A stretch of DNA of 64,000 bases from a virus (taxonomy: Duplodnaviria; Caudoviricetes). Positions 1 to 36,488 of this stretch are shown in pieces. Position 1 is the first letter of the stretch, and every line of letters begins with the position of its first letter. Both the position numbers and the translations under genes were made by a program. Under the pieces are notes generated by a model. That model did not search any database. It had not been told where the DNA came from and saw only the letters and a program-made list of their open reading frames with translations. The stretch is from the IMG/VR virus record IMGVR_UViG_3300007512_001664, positions 64,001 through 128,000 of that record; one strand, 5' to 3'.

Positions 1-396
1 GATCTGTCTTAACTCACCGGCCTTGTTTGTTATTCTGAGCATATCCTTATCTGCTGGGCATTTAAATACCCCAACAGAATGACCCACGTAAGGATAAAGG
101 GGAGTCTTTTTCAGAAACTGATCTTTATTTCCATATTTAGAGATATTTAAACTACCGGGTGCCCATGTATACTTAGAACATCTCTCATACTTCCAAGAAC
201 TTGAATATAATATTTTGTCACCGTGGTCATCGCTAAAGGTCATGTGAGCCATTTGTAGTTGTTTTTGATTACTAATGCAGGTCGCTCGTTGACTGATAGA
301 TTTTGCCTTATTAACTGCTGGTAACAGGAGCGCTGCTAGAAGTGCGATAATAGCAATAACCACTAGTAACTCAATTAGAGTAAATCCTTTTCTCAT
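1..396 (-). CDS. DUF1559 / prepilin-type N-terminal cleavage-methylation domain protein, second copy (partial, runs off the window start; missing from ORF track)
   Basis: Manual translation from CAT at 394-396: [50 protein letters not shown]...FKCPADKD. The start overlaps the stop of the upstream paralog (ATGA). Confidence 0.9.
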
Positions 397-1385
397 CGAT
401 AAGGGTTCCATGTTGGATGGCTACCCCAGCTATCGTTCCAATACCAGCCCCATGAATCATACATACCTCCATCTTTTTCTCGTAGATTCCAGTCCCTATT
501 GTATCGACCTATGCCTCCCATAACACCATACCAGCGATGATTGTTAGGATCTGGTATGATCGCTCTTTCTCTTAACCAAGCTAAGTCTCTATTATTAGGA
601 CTGATTATCTTATCTTGATTGGTTGTTGGGTTCATTGCATCAGCTGATATATTTATTGTATCCTCTTCTAGCCATCGCTTAAACTCGACATGAGCATCAA
701 CAAATGAAACCACTGATCCATTATTGTGATAAACACCTGGCCAATCTTGAGAGAAGAAGCTCTCACCTCCTTTGAGAGTTGGTGCTACTCTAAAGTTACC
801 AGCATTAATTGACTGAGCTGGCATTTCAATAAAAGTAAACAACTCACTAGGGCTGTATACGTCGTCATAGGTGTGATGAACTTTAAATTGTGTATCTGAC
901 AACCATGGCCAACCTGACCAACCACCGACAAATAGGTTTACACTATAAGAACGAGGCCTATTAACAATTTCAGGTTTAAGTGTACTAGAAATTGGTCCTG
1001 GTATACGAACAGTTGACTTATCACCTGGGCAATGATATATTCCCATACCAGCGTATGGTTTTAAAGGTGAAAAGAAAAGAGGTCGGTCGCTCTGTCCCCA
1101 TGCTCCATTGCCGCTCATACTGTCAGCGACCCATGCCCACATTCCAGTAGGTTCACCTGCCCAAGCTGATGCATAAGGAAATCTATCTTCATGATCGGCT
1201 GCAAATTCAGCGAACGCGAGATTAAGCTGTCGTTGGTTATTTATGCAAGCGGCCTGCCACCCGGTTTGTTTAGCAGAGCCTAGAGCTGGTAACAATAACG
1301 CAGCTAAAATTGCTATTATCGCTATTACTACCAGTAGTTCAATAAGTGTGAACCCCCTGGTTGCTTTCGCCGCAGGCGGGGCCAT
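393..1385 (-). CDS. DUF1559 family type IV pilin-like protein with H-X9-DG-type C-terminal motif
   Basis: Class III signal RG|[42 protein letters not shown], and C-terminal [16 protein letters not shown]. This architecture is typical of Planctomycetota/Verrucomicrobiota proteins. Confidence 0.92.
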
Positions 1386-1393
1386 ATTATAAG

Positions 1394-1399
1394 TATTTA
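1394..1399 (-). promoter_or_regulatory. T4-type late promoter (TAAATA) for the DUF1559 pair
   Basis: ATAAATACTT on the minus strand, 8 nt before the ATG at 1385. The same motif precedes the sheath, tube and baseplate genes. Confidence 0.7.
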
Positions 1400-1426
1400 T
1401 AATGATATCTCTTTGAAACAGTCTAT

Positions 1427-1648
1427 TTATTTACTTAAATATGTAGCTATAATGGAGCAAATAAACCCTATTAGTGCTCCGCCTACTGTTCCAATCATGG
1501 CTAATTTTGAAGTTTGAGTAGCTACTTGAAGCTCTATTTTTTTCTGATTGTCTTGTAAGCGACCTATATCCCCATCGAGTCTGTGTAACTCACTGAGTAC
1601 CAACCGCCTCCACTCGGCCCAAGATCCGTTTTCTTTAGGTTCATCCAT
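1427..1648 (-). CDS. small coiled-coil protein with C-terminal transmembrane helix (holin/XhlA-like architecture)
   Basis: 73 aa with a heptad-like middle region and hydrophobic [23 protein letters not shown] at the C-terminus. Confidence 0.5.
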
Positions 1649-1982
1649 GCGATATAAGAGTCACTTTCTTGTGTATAAGTTTACCATCACGCCGTAAGTC
1701 TGTTACTTTAACCATGTGCTCCGTGTCGTGTATCGTAATTGTTCTAGATCGTTTATTATTCGTTAAAACATCTATACCAAGAATAGTATTTAGACCCTTA
1801 TTGTGAATTTCTTCTTTATTCACATCAAATGACCTTTGAAAATAATCGTTACACCATTTGATTCTTCCAGCCTCTGATACTAACACAATAGAATAATCAG
1901 CCTTTGTAACGTAATCTATAAAATCGTTTTCATGCAGCTCTAGCTGATGAGTCAATTTCTCTAACTTCTTTAAATTAGTCAC
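1641..1982 (-). CDS. stand-alone PAS-domain protein
   Basis: SIVLVSEAGRIKWCNDYFQRSFDVNKEEIHNKGLNTIL matches the PAS pattern (i.v.d.dG.i...N..f...fg...ee..g). GTG start with TAAATA 7 nt upstream. Confidence 0.65.
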   Translation of the reverse strand: MTNLKKLEKLTHQLELHENDFIDYVTKADYSIVLVSEAGRIKWCNDYFQRSFDVNKEEIHNKGLNTILGIDVLTNNKRSRTITIHDTEHMVKVTDLRRDGKLIHKKVTLISHG

Positions 1983-2586: not shown

Positions 2587-2955
2587 ATGAAGAAGACATT
2601 ATTGACATTAGCCGTGATCGGCTTTTTATCAACAACTACCCACGCCGGCTTTCTTGATCATTTCGGGGCTGGTTTGAAACCTGTGCCTTATTTGAAAGTT
2701 CCTCTAGTTAAGTTAGCAGTTCCTGCTCCATCTCTTGCAGTTGGGCCTAGAGCTGGAACTGAAGTAGATGGTAAAGTCTCAGGTACTGGTGCTAGTGCAG
2801 CTCTTCCATGGATTCGTGGAGGAGTTAAGTGGCCTAGCTTGACTCTGGGAGCGGGAGACGCCAAGGTGACGATTGGTCCTAAGGCTGCTAAAGGAGACGC
2901 TGCTAAGAAGAAGGCCGCAGTGGCCAAAAAGAAGAGGGCTACTAAGAAGAAGTAA
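2587..2955 (+). CDS. secreted protein with Lys/Ala-rich histone-like tail
   Basis: Signal peptide MKKTLLTLAVIGFLSTTTHA, C-terminal KAAKGDAAKKKAAVAKKKRATKKK, and TAAATA 8 nt upstream. Confidence 0.65.
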   Translation: MKKTLLTLAVIGFLSTTTHAGFLDHFGAGLKPVPYLKVPLVKLAVPAPSLAVGPRAGTEVDGKVSGTGASAALPWIRGGVKWPSLTLGAGDAKVTIGPKAAKGDAAKKKAAVAKKKRATKKK

Positions 2956-2979
2956 CCTATTCTTAATCAATAAGTGGGG

Positions 2980-3008
2980 AAAGAGCCGACCTAGGTCGGC
3001 TCTTTTTT
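2980..3008 (+). terminator. intrinsic terminator
   Basis: AAAGAGCCGAC-CTAG-GTCGGCTCTTTTTT. Confidence 0.85.
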
Positions 3009-3045
3009 ATGTTTTTTCGTAAGGAATTCAATAAATAATATACGT

Positions 3046-3336
3046 ATGAAAAAGTTAACTAATGTCGGTGTAGTCTCCGCAGCAAATGTTTTAGGCGTGC
3101 TGGGAGCTCTTACTGGTCTAGTCAAGGTTACCATTTTACCTGTACTTGCTGTCATCGCAGCAGGTAACTTAGGTGATATAGATGCTGCTGTTAAAACAAT
3201 TGGTGAAGCTGCATCAAAAAATGTAGGTGATGTTGTTACATTTGCCGTGGTAGGATGGTTAGGTGGTGCTGTTTGGGCATGGCTGCTCAATTTATCATTG
3301 AAATGGACAAAGGGTCTAAGCTGGACAGTTAAGTAA
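3046..3336 (+). CDS. small integral membrane protein (2 TM)
   Basis: Two long hydrophobic segments, TAAATA 8 nt upstream, flanked by terminators. Confidence 0.65.
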   Translation: MKKLTNVGVVSAANVLGVLGALTGLVKVTILPVLAVIAAGNLGDIDAAVKTIGEAASKNVGDVVTFAVVGWLGGAVWAWLLNLSLKWTKGLSWTVK

Positions 3337-3353
3337 GAAACACTTAGAAAATC

Positions 3354-3388
3354 GAAAGAGCCGATCTTATTGGTCGGCTCTTTTTTTT
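3354..3388 (+). terminator. intrinsic terminator, same stem family as 2980-3008
   Basis: GAAAGAGCCGA-TCTTATTGG-TCGGCTCTTTTTTTT. Confidence 0.85.
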
Positions 3389-3403
3389 CGCGATAATTTA
3401 AAG

Positions 3404-3432
3404 TTGCATTTTTAATTATCGCATACTATAAT
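3404..3432 (+). promoter_or_regulatory. sigma70-type early promoter
   Basis: TTGCAT-17 nt-TATAAT, with the ATG 7 nt after the -10 box. Confidence 0.75.
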
Positions 3433-3439
3433 ATCCGCT

Positions 3440-3682
3440 ATGAAAGACTTCTTAAGTTACAAATCTATGATAACTCCGGGAATTATAAAGATCCTGAGCT
3501 ATCTCGGAATGGTGGGTGCTATTATTTTTGGTATTTTCGCCATAGCCGCGGAACCACTTACTGGTGTTGGGCTTGTTATTTTAGGACCAGTAGCAGTTCG
3601 TATTCAAGCTGAATTGATATTAGTCATGTTCGAGATTCATGCCGAACTCAAAAAGCTAAATCACGGCATTAGGAAAAAGTAG
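3440..3682 (+). CDS. DUF4282-like small membrane protein
   Basis: FLSYKSMITPGIIKILSYL...GPVAVRIQAELILVMFEIHAELKKL matches the DUF4282 pattern (F..fitp.iik.ly...Ri..El.iv.F.I.e.L). Confidence 0.7.
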   Translation: MKDFLSYKSMITPGIIKILSYLGMVGAIIFGIFAIAAEPLTGVGLVILGPVAVRIQAELILVMFEIHAELKKLNHGIRKK

Positions 3683-4495
3683 ATGAAAGATCTATTTCGT
3701 CCTGGTCCATTCGAATATAGAATGGGACTTAGTAAAGGGAAGGCTGAAGACTTCTTTAAACATGACCCAGAGGACGAAATAGTTCTAAAAGAACGAAAAC
3801 AAATACTTTCTGAACACCCAGAAAGACATTGTGATTTGTTAGACGAAGGTAGAGATTCCCTAGAGGAATTCAATGAATTGTTAGTACTGTGGGGAATCAT
3901 ACCTTCGTCTCTACCTTTAAAGCAATTAGGTGAATCAATTTCACCTGATATTCTTTTTATGAAAGGAGACACTCTCCTTGGAGGGTGTGTCTGTTTTCCG
4001 TCTTCATGGGCTTTTGAAGATAAAGTAGGGAAGTCTTTAGATTGGATTCATGGAGCAGTACCTACATTAAATGAAAAATTTGCTGATAAGATTGCGCATT
4101 TTATTAATAAGATACCTAGAGATATAGGATGGTTGCGGAGTAATTGGGGGCTCTCGGGAGATAATTTATTGAATCATCACCCTGCATTAAACTTACCACA
4201 ATTAACAGAGAGCACAAGTATGAATGATATTTGGTTTAGAGTTGAAAGGCAATTATTATTTTCTCTCCCTAAAACACAAAGTGTTCTATTTGGAATTAGG
4301 GTACAAAATTACCCTCTTTTTGAGGCTGTCGAAGATGAAGAAGTTAAGACTGGTCTACTCGAAGCATTAAAAACTATGCCAAAAGAAATCGCAAAGTATA
4401 AAAATATAAATCGAGTTCAAGATTCTATTATAAATCATTTAACAGGTACAACTATTATTTGTAGTAATCAATTTGATAGAATATTAAGTACGTGA
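3683..4495 (+). CDS. DUF3445 / heme-dependent oxidative N-demethylase alpha-subunit-like protein
   Basis: GCVCFPSSWAFEDKVGKSLDWIHGAVP, RSNWGL, WFRVERQLLFSLPKTQSVLFGIR are characteristic DUF3445 motifs. Confidence 0.82.
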   Translation: MKDLFRPGPFEYRMGLSKGKAEDFFKHDPEDEIVLKERKQILSEHPERHCDLLDEGRDSLEEFNELLVLWGIIPSSLPLKQLGESISPDILFMKGDTLLGGCVCFPSSWAFEDKVGKSLDWIHGAVPTLNEKFADKIAHFINKIPRDIGWLRSNWGLSGDNLLNHHPALNLPQLTESTSMNDIWFRVERQLLFSLPKTQSVLFGIRVQNYPLFEAVEDEEVKTGLLEALKTMPKEIAKYKNINRVQDSIINHLTGTTIICSNQFDRILST

Positions 4496-8492: not shown

Positions 8493-11065
8493 TTAGTAGA
8501 TACAGTAATCAAGGTGAAAAATATATCGGAGTAAAATCAATGACAAGACCAACAAATCCATATTTCAGATCTCAGATGAACATGACGTACTTTGAGAAGT
8601 TTTTAGATGTTCTTCAGAATATAGAACCAAACGATAATAAATTTCGATCAAAGGATGAATATAAGATTGCGTATGATAGAGATACAAACCGTGATGGATC
8701 AAAATCTAAGTACGCTTATATTGACATACCGTGTGAAGATTTGTCGTTTGCTTTCTCAAAAGAGACAGGCAAGTTGGCCTTCATAGTAAACTACAAAGAC
8801 TGATGACGAGCCCATATTACGATACTTTAAGAAGAATGAATATAGAAAAGAGAAAAGAATTGCTCAAGAAGTGGAAAGAGCTACCTGAGCCAAAACCTAC
8901 GTGGGAATCCTTTAAGAGAAGAAGCCAATTTCAGAATAGTATATAAATGATTACACTAACAAAAGCCGCGCGCGTAGCGCAAGAAGTAAATGAAGAGGAA
9001 GCGAATGTTGAATACAGTGAGTGGGTATTGAAGTGGCAAGAGATTGAGTCAGATATGACGTTCAATGTGCCATGGAAGAAGCTCTACGAAAGAGTTGGAT
9101 TGACAAAGACGATGAGTGGTCCGAGCACTTGTCGTTGGACGATAGCCGAGAAGAAGTTCTGGGCTGAATATCTTAGATTTGTGACTGAGGTTTATCATTA
9201 TGGTGGAACTCTCGATGAATTAAAACGTAGAATAACTGATCAACGTATTTATAATAGTCGGACAGATAAGACAAGAAGATTTTGATTATGACTGAGATTA
9301 AAGACAAGGCAGCGTTCCTTTTTAAACACGCAAAAACACAGGTAAAAAAGCCACACGGCACTCACGGTGAACACGAATCCTTTACAGGTATACCAACAAC
9401 CGGTGAGCTTCCAAAAGATACAAAACAATGCGAACACATAATTGATAGTTGCCCAATTATTACAGCTGCTGGAGAACAGCGGCTTGGGGAAATTTATAGT
9501 GCTCTCTACAACCAATGGGAAGTAATTATAGAAAAGATACATGACCCGTACGTTTCACCCGATCAAGTTGGTACCGGACTTTGTGATAATGGAAGACAAG
9601 CTACGGCTGGAGTTTCGGATTTTTTCCGGGGATGTAAAATGCTTACATTGATTGCAAATACACCTGGCGCTAGCGTGGGAAGTATGCTGCCGAAAGTATC
9701 ATTCTCTGCTATTTCTAAGCTCGGAACGAAACTTCGTTTAGGGCCACCAAAGCCCCTAAGTAGTAAATCGAGCAATGAGACATCTAAGAAAAAGGTAACT
9801 CGGTCAACTCGAAAAAAGATTGTTAAGGGTGACAGCGATCTAGTTCCATGTCTAGTTGAGAGCAAGTATCTTAAGGAAAAGAAAATTTAAATGGATGTAA
9901 TAGAGATATACGGAGAAGATGCTATTTGCGGCGGTGAATGTGAATGCGGTGGTGCTTTGGAATATGAAGAAGCTATTGGCGGTTACGTTTGTGTTGAATG
10001 TGAAGCTGAACATTTTGAGTAAACATGACACTACAAGAAGCAGTTAGAATCGGAAAGGGGTTAGACTTCACGACTATTGAAGAGTGTGTAGATGCTATTC
10101 ATAGTCATGCACCTCAATTGTTCCCATATTCGAAGATCAATGACGAGCTTAGTGAGTTGTACGAAGAGTATGACAATTATAAAAAGCATCCTGAGACATG
10201 GATGACGGCTCTGTGTGGAATTGATGTTCCTGTTGTCCGTAAACTCGGCACGGCCGCGGCCCAGAACAAAAAGATAGAGTACGTACAAAGAGAAGATCAT
10301 AAAGCATGAGCATAAAAGATGTCAGAGCTAATTTAAACACAATCAATAGGATTGTTGATGAGCACTTAGACTTCTTGCTAGAGGTTAGGCAAGACGAAGA
10401 GATGTACAAAGACGATATTAATGACATTGGTAAGATGGCTAGTGATGTTTTATCTACCCTTTCGAAGCATAGCGATCTCTTGCATGCATTGTCTGGTGAT
10501 GAGAAAGAGCTTTGGACGTGTGAGAAATGTGGTGAGAGTACATTTGAGACTGATTACGATTACCTAGTGCACCCAAAGTTGCATTTAGACTGTGTATTAA
10601 AAGAGAACATGAATCATGAGTAATGATATGATAAATTGGGTTTGGTGTGAAGATTGCCTTGAATGGAAGAATGCAGGTGAGGATGTTGCTTTTATATCTA
10701 TCGGTGAGCATAAGACCGGCAAAGAGATAATGGCATTTACATGTGACAAATGTGGTAATGATAATGAAAACTTTATAACTTCATCAGAGATAATGCCGCG
10801 TGGTAGATAATTAATTATATGGAGTACATAGTTTTAATTGCCGTAGGGTGGTTTTGCTGGATGAGTACAATTTTAGTTAATGAAAAGAAAAAACGACAAA
10901 GACATGACAGACGATAATAAGTTCGTTCCAAGAAAAAAGCCAGTAATTAATGCTCGGTTTGCCCCGTATGAACAAGACATAAGTCCAGCTGCTACTGCCA
11001 ATGCACCGTTTGTACCATTAACGGTAGAAGATGCTTTAGCTCGACAGAAGAAAAAGGATAAATAA
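8438..11065 (+). other. run of small hypothetical early genes (8438-8803, 8947-9285, 9282-9890, 10025-10309, 10306-10623, 10616-10810, 10880-11065, plus an uncalled zinc-ribbon ORF 9891-10022)
   Basis: Co-oriented, abutting or ATGA-overlapping ORFs. CxxC pairs in 10616-10810 (CEDC...CDKC) and in 9891-10022 (CECGG...CVEC). Confidence 0.55.
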
Positions 11066-11067
11066 TT

Positions 11068-11295
11068 ATGATGTATGCAGAATTTACTGAAGTTATTAGA
11101 GGTGGGATTGAGCAAGGCAAGAAACGTAAAATTGTCATGAATCTAGAAAAAGTAATTTCGTTTAGAGCTGAACAGGATGGTACAATGTTAGAAACTCGAC
11201 GAGGTGACTTCTATGTTGAAGAAACATATGATCAAATAAAACGTGTCTTTAATAGTAAAAACGGAGTACCACCTGCACTTATACCAGTAAGATGA
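11068..11295 (+). CDS. FlbD-like small beta protein
   Basis: KIVMNLEKVISFRAEQDGTMLETRRGDFYVEETYDQI resembles the FlbD pattern (lN...I..ie...dT.i.l..g....V.Es.eei). Confidence 0.4.
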   Translation: MMYAEFTEVIRGGIEQGKKRKIVMNLEKVISFRAEQDGTMLETRRGDFYVEETYDQIKRVFNSKNGVPPALIPVR

Positions 11296-11834
11296 AACCA
11301 CAATTACTAAAACAAGAGCACATTAAAGAATTGTTACCACCTATTGGTACACTACCTGCAGGTAAATCACTATCGGGTCGAAGACATGTCTTATTCTCTG
11401 ATAGTGACTATGCTATGTTCACTGAGTCGTTCTTGACACGTGAGGGTTTTAATGGATTTAAGAAGTGGCTTAACTTCTGTGGCATAAAAGCATCTGCTCA
11501 AAAGCAATACTGGAAGCGTAATTATGATTGTGACAATTTAGCTAATGCTTTTAAGACTTATATGAATCTGTTACATGCAAAAGCTAATCCGCTATCATTC
11601 ACAGAAGGATTTAAGAAGAATCTAGAGAACGAGAGTGATGCACAAGGAGTTGCTATAGGTGTCATCTATTTTGAAATGAGAAATAAGAAGTCAGCTAGTC
11701 ATCATGCAATTAATGTAGCAGTTACAAACGGTCTTAGAAATGATCCTGCACTTATCTATATAGAACCCAACGGTGCAGGTAGAATTAAACTAACTAAAAG
11801 AGAAAGAGAATCAATATGGTACGTAAACTTTTAA
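11292..11834 (+). CDS. papain/transglutaminase-like cysteine protease domain protein
   Basis: YDCDNLA ... HAINVAV ... IYIEPN, a Cys-His-Glu arrangement like the DCDDFA/HA.N/iEPQ family. Confidence 0.6.
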   Translation: MKPQLLKQEHIKELLPPIGTLPAGKSLSGRRHVLFSDSDYAMFTESFLTREGFNGFKKWLNFCGIKASAQKQYWKRNYDCDNLANAFKTYMNLLHAKANPLSFTEGFKKNLENESDAQGVAIGVIYFEMRNKKSASHHAINVAVTNGLRNDPALIYIEPNGAGRIKLTKRERESIWYVNF

Positions 11835-11938
11835 AGAAACTATTTAAATTTAAAGAAGAAGAAGATATTCAAGAAGAGCTCTTCCCTAAACCCGTTTATG
11901 TGTACGAAGAAGGTGATGATGATTCTGATTGATGAATA

Positions 11939-35435: not shown

Positions 35436-36488
35436 TTAGAACATCCTTACACCAGAAAACGATGAACCTTTACCGATCTTTGGAGCATTAACGCCGGTTT
35501 TTCCGGTACTGCCAAACTTTATAAGAACCACATCATCGTTTGAAACTTCTTCGACGAGACTAAAATCATATATATATGTGGTACCTATCCTATTAGTCCG
35601 ATACCCTTTACGTACTTCAGTACCATTAATATATACTGTAATAGGAATAGAGTCAGCACTAGTACCGGCGTTTGCATATATTATCTCTATATACACATCA
35701 AAAGATATTGTACTTGTTAAAAATTGCGTTGCAGAAGGGTATGTCATTTTAAATGGATTCTGAACTATAGTTCCAATAGCTGGATCAATAGTAGTTCTAT
35801 TAAAGGCTAGATTTCCGCTAGCTGGTATTGTTATATCATTCCCTGTAACTGATACTTTAAAGTTTACAGAGTCAACTGTTGACGATGTTGTATCTAATAA
35901 TCTAGGTGGTATTGTGACAATATCTGTATCTGTTCCATCACTTCGAACTTCAAGGTCTGCTGGTATGCCGTCATACCATTCATGGTCATTCCTTTGATTG
36001 GAGTCACCAGCAGATGCCCATGATTTCACTTTGTATAAGCGTAATTTTGCCCCGGCTTTTAAAGTAACTTTTTGTTCGGTTTCTAATAGGGCTGTAATTT
36101 GACCTATTCTAGCTAATATGTTTTGTATGTCACTTCGGTTCCGGGCTACATTACCTGAAATATCTTGTAATGTTGTATACGCATTATAATTGCGTACACT
36201 TAGATCAATGGTACCTTGTAAGTCTGAATATGTAGGTTTATGATCTGTATCTGTATCTGATCTTAATATATTGAACCCACCAACTGAGAAAAATTGTTTA
36301 TTACCGGTGTTATCTCCGCGACCGGATATTAAATGATAAAAACTAATATTATCAAGACCGATGACAAAATCTCTAAAGTTTAATAGCTTAGTACCGTTGG
36401 TTGTTTCAACAAGCAACTTATCTGTTTTTAATATTTCCGTCCCGATATCTAAATCAGATATATTTACAATTTCGTCTTCTATAGCCAT
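35436..36488 (-). CDS. virion structural protein (tail/fiber-associated)
   Basis: N-terminal IVNISDLDIGTEILKTDKLLV fiber-attachment-like start; TAAATA 5 nt upstream. Confidence 0.5.
   Translation of the reverse strand: MAIEDEIVNISDLDIGTEILKTDKLLVETTNGTKLLNFRDFVIGLDNISFYHLISGRGDNTGNKQFFSVGGFNILRSDTDTDHKPTYSDLQGTIDLSVRNYNAYTTLQDISGNVARNRSDIQNILARIGQITALLETEQKVTLKAGAKLRLYKVKSWASAGDSNQRNDHEWYDGIPADLEVRSDGTDTDIVTIPPRLLDTTSSTVDSVNFKVSVTGNDITIPASGNLAFNRTTIDPAIGTIVQNPFKMTYPSATQFLTSTISFDVYIEIIYANAGTSADSIPITVYINGTEVRKGYRTNRIGTTYIYDFSLVEEVSNDDVVLIKFGSTGKTGVNAPKIGKGSSFSGVRMF

Follow-up and report, generated by a model that had tools for sequence, protein, structure and literature searches.

At the left edge of a 64,000-nucleotide stretch of viral DNA (the window), which corresponds to bases 64001-128000 of the 200,819-bp virus record IMGVR_UViG_3300007512_001664, we identified two tandem, translationally coupled genes for prepilin-type proteins, here named gene A and gene B. 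Both genes belong to the phage, both are held under strong purifying selection, and both can be filed, at the superfamily level only, with the H-X9-DG/DUF1559 proteins. With regard to their function, we give about even chances to the reading that this captured, duplicated and coupled prepilin pair remodels a prepilin-dependent surface apparatus of the host.

Gene A occupies positions 393-1385 of the window on the minus strand and was recovered as an open reading frame (ORF) for a 330-aa prepilin-type H-X9-D(A) protein matching PF07963 and TIGR02532. Its stop codon and the start codon of gene B share an ATGA overlap (393..396, minus strand; TCAT on the plus strand), which couples both genes translationally, and the same coupling is present in the relatives L041, L003, L010 and L032. 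Gene B starts at the ATG at 396..394, with its first 132 codons lying within the window (1..396, minus strand) and the remaining 585 nt located to the left of it. As the initial annotation had noticed, the ORF track missed this second gene, because it is cut by the left edge of the window; the full-length genome contains gene B in complete form (63416-64396, minus strand, 326 aa), and the gene B product is 45% identical to that of gene A.

Each of the two products begins with a class III signal peptide. In A (1290..1385, minus strand), an 11-residue leader ending in KATRG is followed by FTLIELL, with cleavage between G11 and F12, F at position +1, E16 at position +5 and a hydrophobic alpha1-N helix. 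In B (322..396, minus strand), the leader comprises four residues (MRKG/FTLIELL), also with F at +1 and E at +5. The prepilin profiles were matched above their cut-offs in both cases, with 32.2 bits for A and 30.2 bits for B against PF07963 (cut-off 21.2) and 32.0 and 32.3 bits, respectively, against TIGR02532 (cut-off 16.3). The short basic leader ending in Gly, the F at +1, the E at +5 and the hydrophobic alpha1-N segment are those of a type IV pilin or pseudopilin signal, and the two ATGA-coupled genes with intact G/FTLIELL sites described in the initial annotation are confirmed. A leftward extension, which that annotation had proposed for counting copies, yielded the complete gene B. Furthermore, a six-frame scan of the 200-kb genome found the class III motif at just two credible sites, namely those of A and B, so that the copy number is exactly two and a larger number of pilin copies was rejected.

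The record that carries the pair has direct terminal repeats, of 119 bp as found in this analysis, and is rated 100% complete, with the pilin genes sitting mid-genome. Tail sheath and baseplate wedge proteins are encoded within the window, while DNA polymerase, a gp41-like helicase, UvsX, SbcC, the portal and the large terminase are encoded outside it, together with a gp55-like late sigma factor at genome positions 157749-158189 (phrog_234, E 1.6e-28). No gp33 was found among ten small proteins scanned, and no tyrosine integrase was found in the phage genome. The carrier is a virulent-looking member of a T4-like marine jumbo phage lineage, and all or part of the stretch is present in marine metagenomes from 13 studies.

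The linkage of the pilin genes to this genome was also seen in independent assemblies. In another sample of the same study, a 1,209-nt contig links, with 0 mismatches, the 5' end of gene A to the neighbouring genes. L041, an independent 53.9-kb IMG/VR contig that carries gene A in the corresponding position, shows synteny at both junctions, its flanking proteins being 63-100% identical (most of them above 85%). Logan contigs are short, and linkage in them was seen piecewise only. Because L041 is syntenic on both sides and the bridging contig is free of mismatches, an assembly chimera at 1.4-2 kb, which the initial annotation had named as a possible refutation, was rejected; the complete record with its terminal repeats, the mid-genome position, the L041 synteny and the bridging contig likewise rule out host contamination, and the initial claim that these are phage genes holds.

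Homologues of gene A with 57-96% identity were found on at least 54 IMG/VR loci, and a tblastn search of 50,697 INPHARED records of isolated phages returned no match for it. Among the 95 sequences of a maximum-likelihood tree, the 43 of viral origin formed one clade, with a support of 96 in the Shimodaira-Hasegawa-like approximate likelihood ratio test (SH-aLRT), which splits into an A-type group (33 sequences, support 99) and a B-type group (10 sequences, SH-aLRT 100). All 43 viral copies have intact frames. Selection was estimated as the pairwise Nei-Gojobori ratio of nonsynonymous to synonymous substitution rates (dN/dS) for 33 distinct A-type and 10 B-type genes, with medians of 0.058 (A, n = 33) and 0.099 (B, n = 10); since dS is saturated at about 1.1-1.2, these values are rough, yet clearly far below 1. 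Both A and B are therefore held under strong purifying selection.

These data bear on whether the pair could be a non-functional passenger, whether it came from host DNA, arose by chimeric assembly or is a moron in decay. The flanking genes differ on most related contigs, which places the locus in a variable region and would suit such a passenger. Against this stand the completeness of the genome, which has terminal repeats, and the agreement of independent assemblies across the junctions; furthermore, 43 out of 43 viral copies in the tree are intact, with a dN/dS of ~0.06-0.10, and a phage-type start signal precedes gene A. Because the viral copies form one clade, dN/dS is low and gene A recurs on so many IMG/VR contigs, contamination, chimerism and gene decay were all rejected, and we regard this explanation as refuted, with a negligible chance of being right.

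Conservation is unevenly distributed along gene A. Residues F12, L14 and E16 of the signal region are invariant in 65 homologues, as are H220, D230 and H232 of the head in the same number of sequences; G231 is near-invariant, but is an Ala in gene A. Column entropy is lowest at residues 211-240, in line with a nearly invariant H-X9-D region. Three parts are variable, namely the leader preceding the cleavage site, residues 301-315 and an indel-rich surface loop at residues 121-150 (936..1025, minus strand), which directly follows a conserved CPGDK and has a column entropy of 1.0-1.2 bits, compared with 0.1-0.4 bits in the core (33 A-type viral sequences).

The AlphaFold2 (AF2) model of gene A (predicted local distance difference test score, pLDDT, 87; predicted template modelling score, pTM, 0.85) shows a 50-residue alpha1 helix (residues 14-63) and a beta-rich head; this long N-terminal helix packed on a beta head is the fold of type IV pilins and pseudopilins. 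Nearly all top structures in an exhaustive VIA-align search were likewise type IV pilins or pseudopilins. In searches of AFDB, clusters named prepilin or DUF1559 were matched with E values of 1e-16 to 5e-16 and template modelling (TM) scores of 0.66-0.69, those labelled 'DUF1559 domain-containing protein' with E 5e-16 and TM 0.66, and Foldseek found no match among the BFVD viral structures at E ≤0.001. The H-X9-DG motif lies in the C-terminal part of the head, where it is canonical in gene B (HIDGTALAFADG) and reads H-X9-DA in gene A, with Ala in place of the motif Gly (H220-X9-D230-A231, followed by H232; 693..728, minus strand); it is the best-conserved part of the head. According to the alignment, a Trp-rich C-terminal tail (423..452, minus strand, in A) is common to A, B and their nearest cellular relatives, and is missing in the more distant homologues from Verrucomicrobiota and Planctomycetota.

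The curated family thresholds gave another picture. Gene A scored 13.9 bits against PF07596 (DUF1559, SBP_bac_10), below the gathering cut-off of 23.3 bits, and hmmscan found no PF07596 match at E ≤0.01 for A or B. Similarly, A reached 14.2 bits against TIGR04294, for which the threshold is 19 bits, the viral homologue P0034 reached 17.6 bits, and neither B nor the cellular sister P0077 produced a match at E ≤0.1. PF07596 was matched by 17 out of 65 homologues at E ≤0.01, and two of the homologues carrying it, P0066 and P0108, align to the phage proteins at full length. Because both profiles stay below cut-off, while full-length homology, motif and fold agree, we assign the two genes to the H-X9-DG/DUF1559 superfamily by homology and fold and not by curated thresholds. 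The 'DUF1559' label of the initial annotation stands in this broader sense; as a family call it fails both cut-offs, and gene A has DA instead of DG.

The nearest cellular homologues of the pair are found in Verrucomicrobiota, mostly in metagenome-assembled genomes of the Limisphaerales/Pedosphaera type, with about 40-45% identity over about 82% of the length. In the tree, the sister of the viral clade is a tandem gene pair located on a 234-kb cellular contig with housekeeping genes, DUF1501 and a sulfatase, and the 90% cluster of one of these sister genes includes an NCBI protein labelled Limisphaerales; the viral clade and its sister are together nested within Verrucomicrobiota. The phylogeny that the initial annotation had suggested thus resolves the viral copies as a single clade next to a Limisphaerales-type tandem pair. 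On its simplest reading, this topology would reflect one capture from Limisphaerales/Pedosphaera-type Verrucomicrobiota, followed by duplication in the phage lineage. The phage also encodes a DUF1552 protein (PF07586, 263 bits) at positions 970-2214 of L146 (genome 128970-130214, plus strand), behind TAAATA-N5-ATG. DUF1552 is a hallmark family of the Planctomycetes-Verrucomicrobia-Chlamydiae (PVC) bacteria (Planctomycetota, Verrucomicrobiota), and the phage copy is closest to Limisphaerales (46%) and Pedosphaera (45%), with two planctomycetes at 42% and 40%. The host is probably a marine member of the Verrucomicrobiota.

With regard to expression, the TAAATA reported 8 nt before the first gene proved to be part of an exact TATAAATA, the T4 late-promoter consensus, at 1394..1401 on the minus strand (read from 1401 to 1394), followed by 8 nt and the ATG of gene A. 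Over 260 crude ORF calls, TAAATA was the most enriched hexamer within 40 nt before genes (79 observed vs. 10.7 expected), and 53 of these 79 copies end 5-9 nt before an ATG. It lies 3-13 nt upstream of 63 of the 260 genes, where 3.4 would be expected from its genome-wide frequency and 8 are found in antisense orientation. Of the 28 genes in the replication block, 1 is preceded by it, compared with 62 of 232 elsewhere (Fisher p = 0.004). Depletion in this block and the 63 sense vs. 8 antisense copies make it unlikely that the motif is an AT-rich or ribosome-binding artefact. The extended form TAAATA(A/T)TT ends 5-9 nt before many starts that have no Shine-Dalgarno sequence; in the window, examples are the motif at 1394-1401 (minus strand) and those before the gene starts at 36488, 40943, 48116, 57422 and 60209. 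A perfect TATAAT also lies within the 8-nt spacer, at 1386-1391 (minus strand), immediately next to the ATG of gene A. This distance is too short for it to serve gene A, and it probably reflects AT-rich context.

The exact TATAAATA octamer and the gp55-like sigma factor are what a T4-type late promoter calls for, and the TAAATA pattern as a whole, together with the gp55 homologue, fits promoters of this type. T4 transcription starts about 6 nt after the late-promoter octamer, so that the spacing observed here is likely to give transcripts with leaders of 0-4 nt, i.e., near-leaderless mRNAs; alternatively, TAAATA might conceivably act as a translation signal independent of Shine-Dalgarno sequences. 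The signal shows that gene A forms part of the expression programme of the phage itself. In this respect, the phage-type promoter of the initial annotation is genuine; the 'late' timing of the pair is plausible, probable rather than demonstrated, given that the motif also precedes the genes for ribonucleotide reductase and sugar epimerases.

The same motif is found before baseplate, tail and endolysin-like genes, and this shared promoter type would agree with a late-stage task that has nothing to do with pili, for instance in virion assembly, lysis or release, in which the N-terminal helix would be a mere membrane anchor. Against such a task, the cleavage motif with F at +1 and E at +5 is strictly conserved; moreover, A and B are close homologues of a cellular family, and neither PHROGs nor BFVD contains a known virion or lysis protein that resembles them. 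We therefore consider such a role very improbable.

No prepilin peptidase (Peptidase_A24) was found in the phage genome, whereas five out of five related Verrucomicrobiota genomes encode one, at one locus each; these same five host-type genomes contain 64-75 homologues of the pilin genes each (E ≤1e-10). Dependence of the pair on host machinery, as put forward in the initial annotation, is reasonable on this basis.

From these elements, a sequence of events can be proposed. As the data show, an ancestor of the phage lineage took an H-X9-DG-type prepilin gene from Limisphaerales/Pedosphaera-type Verrucomicrobiota, and this gene then duplicated to give A and B. The pair is likely to be transcribed from the TATAAATA element, of the kind read by a gp55-like sigma factor, as a nearly leaderless transcript. 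The precursors would insert into the host inner membrane via their class III signal peptides and, because the phage has no peptidase of its own, would be cleaved by that of the host. Once mature, A and B may enter a pilus, a pseudopilus or another prepilin-dependent envelope apparatus, alongside or in place of some of the 64-75 host paralogues. Most speculatively, and by analogy with other phage pilins, the altered surface of the infected cell might reduce adsorption of competing phages or of the phage's own progeny. Among the possible consequences we would rank receptor masking or replacement first, for which P-FimU, the PilA-like proteins of virulent phages and the SNJ2 pilins, all discussed below, offer precedents.

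Several observations weigh against this proposal. We know of no H-X9-DG protein with a known function or a demonstrated filament, and the step in which A and B join a pilus rests for this reason on analogy. The structural matches from VIA-align are weak (best Z 4.6, 123 residues aligned, root-mean-square deviation 3.6 Å), and Foldseek against PDB matched the N-terminal helix alone, with E 0.17 or weaker. Superinfection exclusion, receptor masking and altered adhesion, the outcomes suggested in the initial annotation, are conjectural, and late timing, if real, fits poorly with classical, early-acting superinfection exclusion. The very low dN/dS (with saturated dS) contrasts with the highly diverse P-FimU proteins, which are driven by an arms race. 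In addition, no RNA run is listed among the sequencing runs that hold the stretch. A complex prediction for mature A with mature B scored 0.00 and gave no verdict, and it carries no weight either way.

The main rival to surface remodelling is an auxiliary metabolic role, in which A and B would be substrate-binding proteins, tethered to the membrane or displayed on a pseudopilus, that sustain or redirect nutrient capture during infection. Analogies exist in the Sulfolobus bindosome, where sugar-binding proteins carry class III signals, and in the PstS of cyanophages, which sustains phosphate capture during infection. The number of paralogues in each host-type genome (64-75) is what would be expected for diverse specificities, PF07596 has been described as a solute-binding family (PMC2754498), and strong purifying selection on a fully conserved H/D/H core suits a fixed biochemical activity. 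Furthermore, the Trp-rich tail could bind glycans, and the phage carries other host-like envelope or metabolic genes, in particular DUF1552 and the sugar epimerases. Nevertheless, no member of the family is known to have a binding activity, late expression would leave little time for metabolic gain, and related contigs may have a short pilin of ~97 aa in place of the second gene, or no second gene at all, which would be odd for a defined transporter part. On balance, we hold this role to be unlikely, although it is the foremost competitor.

A and B could also be dominant-negative 'poison' subunits which titrate the host peptidase, or cap or jam the assembly platform, thereby shutting down host pili or type II secretion. 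A strong phage promoter before the pair, the single peptidase locus per genome (five genomes searched) and the loss in gene A of the near-invariant Gly of the DG motif would be in keeping with such an action; phage inhibitors of pilus assembly are known, and truncated phage PilA proteins have been proposed to act in this way (PMC12952977). What makes it improbable to us is that purifying selection has conserved every other invariant residue as well as the entire 300-aa head, whereas a competitor for the peptidase would need the N-terminus alone, and that the nearest cellular relatives have an identical architecture.

A wider interpretation, which we advance tentatively and with low confidence, is that the H-X9-DG family forms a pseudopilus-tethered apparatus for capture at the surface or in the periplasm, a gateway that phages of PVC bacteria use or must disable. 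Large phages of Verrucomicrobiota and other PVC bacteria would have captured its prepilins repeatedly, with A and B representing a minimal, portable version of two subunits. If true, the pair would be the first means of probing experimentally what the largest paralogue family specific to PVC bacteria does.

The comparison of related viral contigs revealed considerable plasticity at the locus. In L041, gene B is replaced by an ATGA-coupled short prepilin of 97 aa, and gene A is 71-73% identical to that of our phage, whereas identity is 83-100% for most of the flanking proteins. L027 likewise has one short prepilin after gene A instead of B, and L018 (5980-8510) harbours four tandem prepilins, i.e., A, B and two of ~95-100 aa. 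These short prepilins of L018 end in a C-x-D-C-H motif, and a Cys-rich ORF of 452 aa, TnpB-like by eye only, lies nearby (10530-11888). The A and B tandem is also found on L060, a 333,300-bp ENA contig with rIIB and DnaE (A 90%, B 81%), which is 1.6 times the size of this genome and might represent either a bigger relative or the product of concatenation during assembly. Gene A also stands beside PhoH, PTPS and GCHY-1 on a Tara contig of 151 kb. The differing flanks among relatives rule out a conserved pilin-epimerase or pilin-PAS operon.

A wider scan of IMG/VR found relatives on 289 viral stretches. Among them, distant viral relatives (29-38% identity) occur on terminase-bearing contigs, including a 354-kb record rated complete, and a tree to which distant viral relatives were added requires 6-9 switches between viruses and cells. 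Capture of such prepilins by viruses therefore looks recurrent, with the caveat that some 'viral' contigs of low completeness may include host DNA.

In the immediate neighbourhood, the region upstream of gene A (1427..1982, minus strand) encodes a 73-aa tail-anchored coiled-coil protein and a 113-aa, weakly PAS-like protein, which are kept beside the pilins only in the close relative L041 and are reported here as context. On the other side, two genes downstream of the pilins and 1.6 kb left of the window, lies the gene for an ankyrin-repeat protein of 514 aa in which a class III nucleotide cyclase domain is weakly recognizable (L058, 16846-18390, minus strand; genome 60846-62390). It is found near the pilin cassette in six related contigs, with 70-97% identity, and may be linked to the pilins, e.g., through second-messenger control of pili.

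Three small envelope-type proteins are encoded opposite the pilin operon (window 2587-3682, plus strand) and are 96-98% conserved in L041; one of them has a signal peptide and a Lys-rich tail, and the other two are membrane proteins, one of 96 aa and one of the DUF4282 family. They are followed by a 270-aa protein (window 3683-4495, plus strand) similar to the alpha subunit of haem-dependent oxidative N-demethylase (PF11927, E 1.7e-39), which is unusual for a phage. A 353-aa protein with an Mtd_N domain (Major tropism determinant, 31.5 bits) is encoded behind TAAATA (L143, 17949-19010, plus strand); it may bind a receptor and belong to the type of protein on which diversity-generating retroelements act.

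In comparison with known systems, A and B resemble the cellular H-X9-DG (TIGR04294) and DUF1559 (PF07596) proteins in their full-length homology, fold and class III signal, and share with them invariant Cys, CP-D, R, GG, P, H-X9-D-x-H and W positions. In contrast to these proteins, A and B are virus-encoded, stay below both cut-offs and, in the case of A, carry DA; their C-terminus is longer, with the Trp-rich tail common only to the nearest cellular subgroup. Two essential DUF1559 members were reported in Planctopirus (PMC10632474), and we found no publication that connects phages with DUF1559 or H-X9-DG proteins. That a phage keeps just two selected members of this family narrows which of its properties matter.

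The start signal shares with T4 late promoters (TATAAATA, read by gp55 together with gp33 and the gp45 clamp) the exact consensus, its orientation, the presence of a gp55 homologue and its near absence from the replication module. It differs in that the motif ends 5-9 nt before most starts, leaving essentially no leader and no Shine-Dalgarno sequence, in that it also precedes ribonucleotide reductase, and in that gp33 was not among the ten proteins scanned. This promoter pattern predicts a largely leaderless late transcriptome.

Phage pilins as such are already known, as is reflected in PHROG 3433, which is annotated 'pilin'; what is new here is the extension of phage pilin capture to the H-X9-DG family. 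That phage pilins act as anti-phage receptor replacements was shown only recently, and has so far concerned Pseudomonas prophages and one archaeal provirus only. The present pair would extend this idea in four respects, in that the carrier is a virulent-looking jumbo phage of the T4-like type, the probable hosts are the little-studied marine Verrucomicrobiota, the genes are coupled and the proteins belong to the H-X9-DG/DUF1559 family. The pair may also serve as a host-prediction marker for this uncultured phage clade.

The archaeal case is the haloarchaeal provirus SNJ2, which encodes two tandem type IV pilins, uses the host secretion and assembly system and was shown to form filaments (PMC12426801). 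A and B resemble it as two tandem virus-encoded pilins; SNJ2 differs in being archaeal and temperate, in its demonstrated filament formation and in having no sequence relationship to our pair.

The bacterial case is P-FimU of the Pseudomonas F10-like prophages, which enters the pilus and blocks phage adsorption; PilA-like genes also occur in non-temperate phages, for whose products a similar action has been proposed (PMC12952977). In common with P-FimU and the PilA-like proteins, A and B are phage-encoded homologues of a host prepilin-type protein and, by analogy, would rely on host machinery. Unlike them, A and B are H-X9-DG-type proteins of 326-330 aa encoded by a coupled pair. Expression from a prophage, as for P-FimU, does not apply here, as the carrier has terminal repeats, a T4-like replication and late-transcription set and no detected tyrosine integrase. 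In sum, P-FimU is a highly diverse protein of Pseudomonas prophages, whereas A and B are kept under strong purifying selection in a virulent-looking, T4-like jumbo phage with a gp55-type signal and a probable host among the Verrucomicrobiota.

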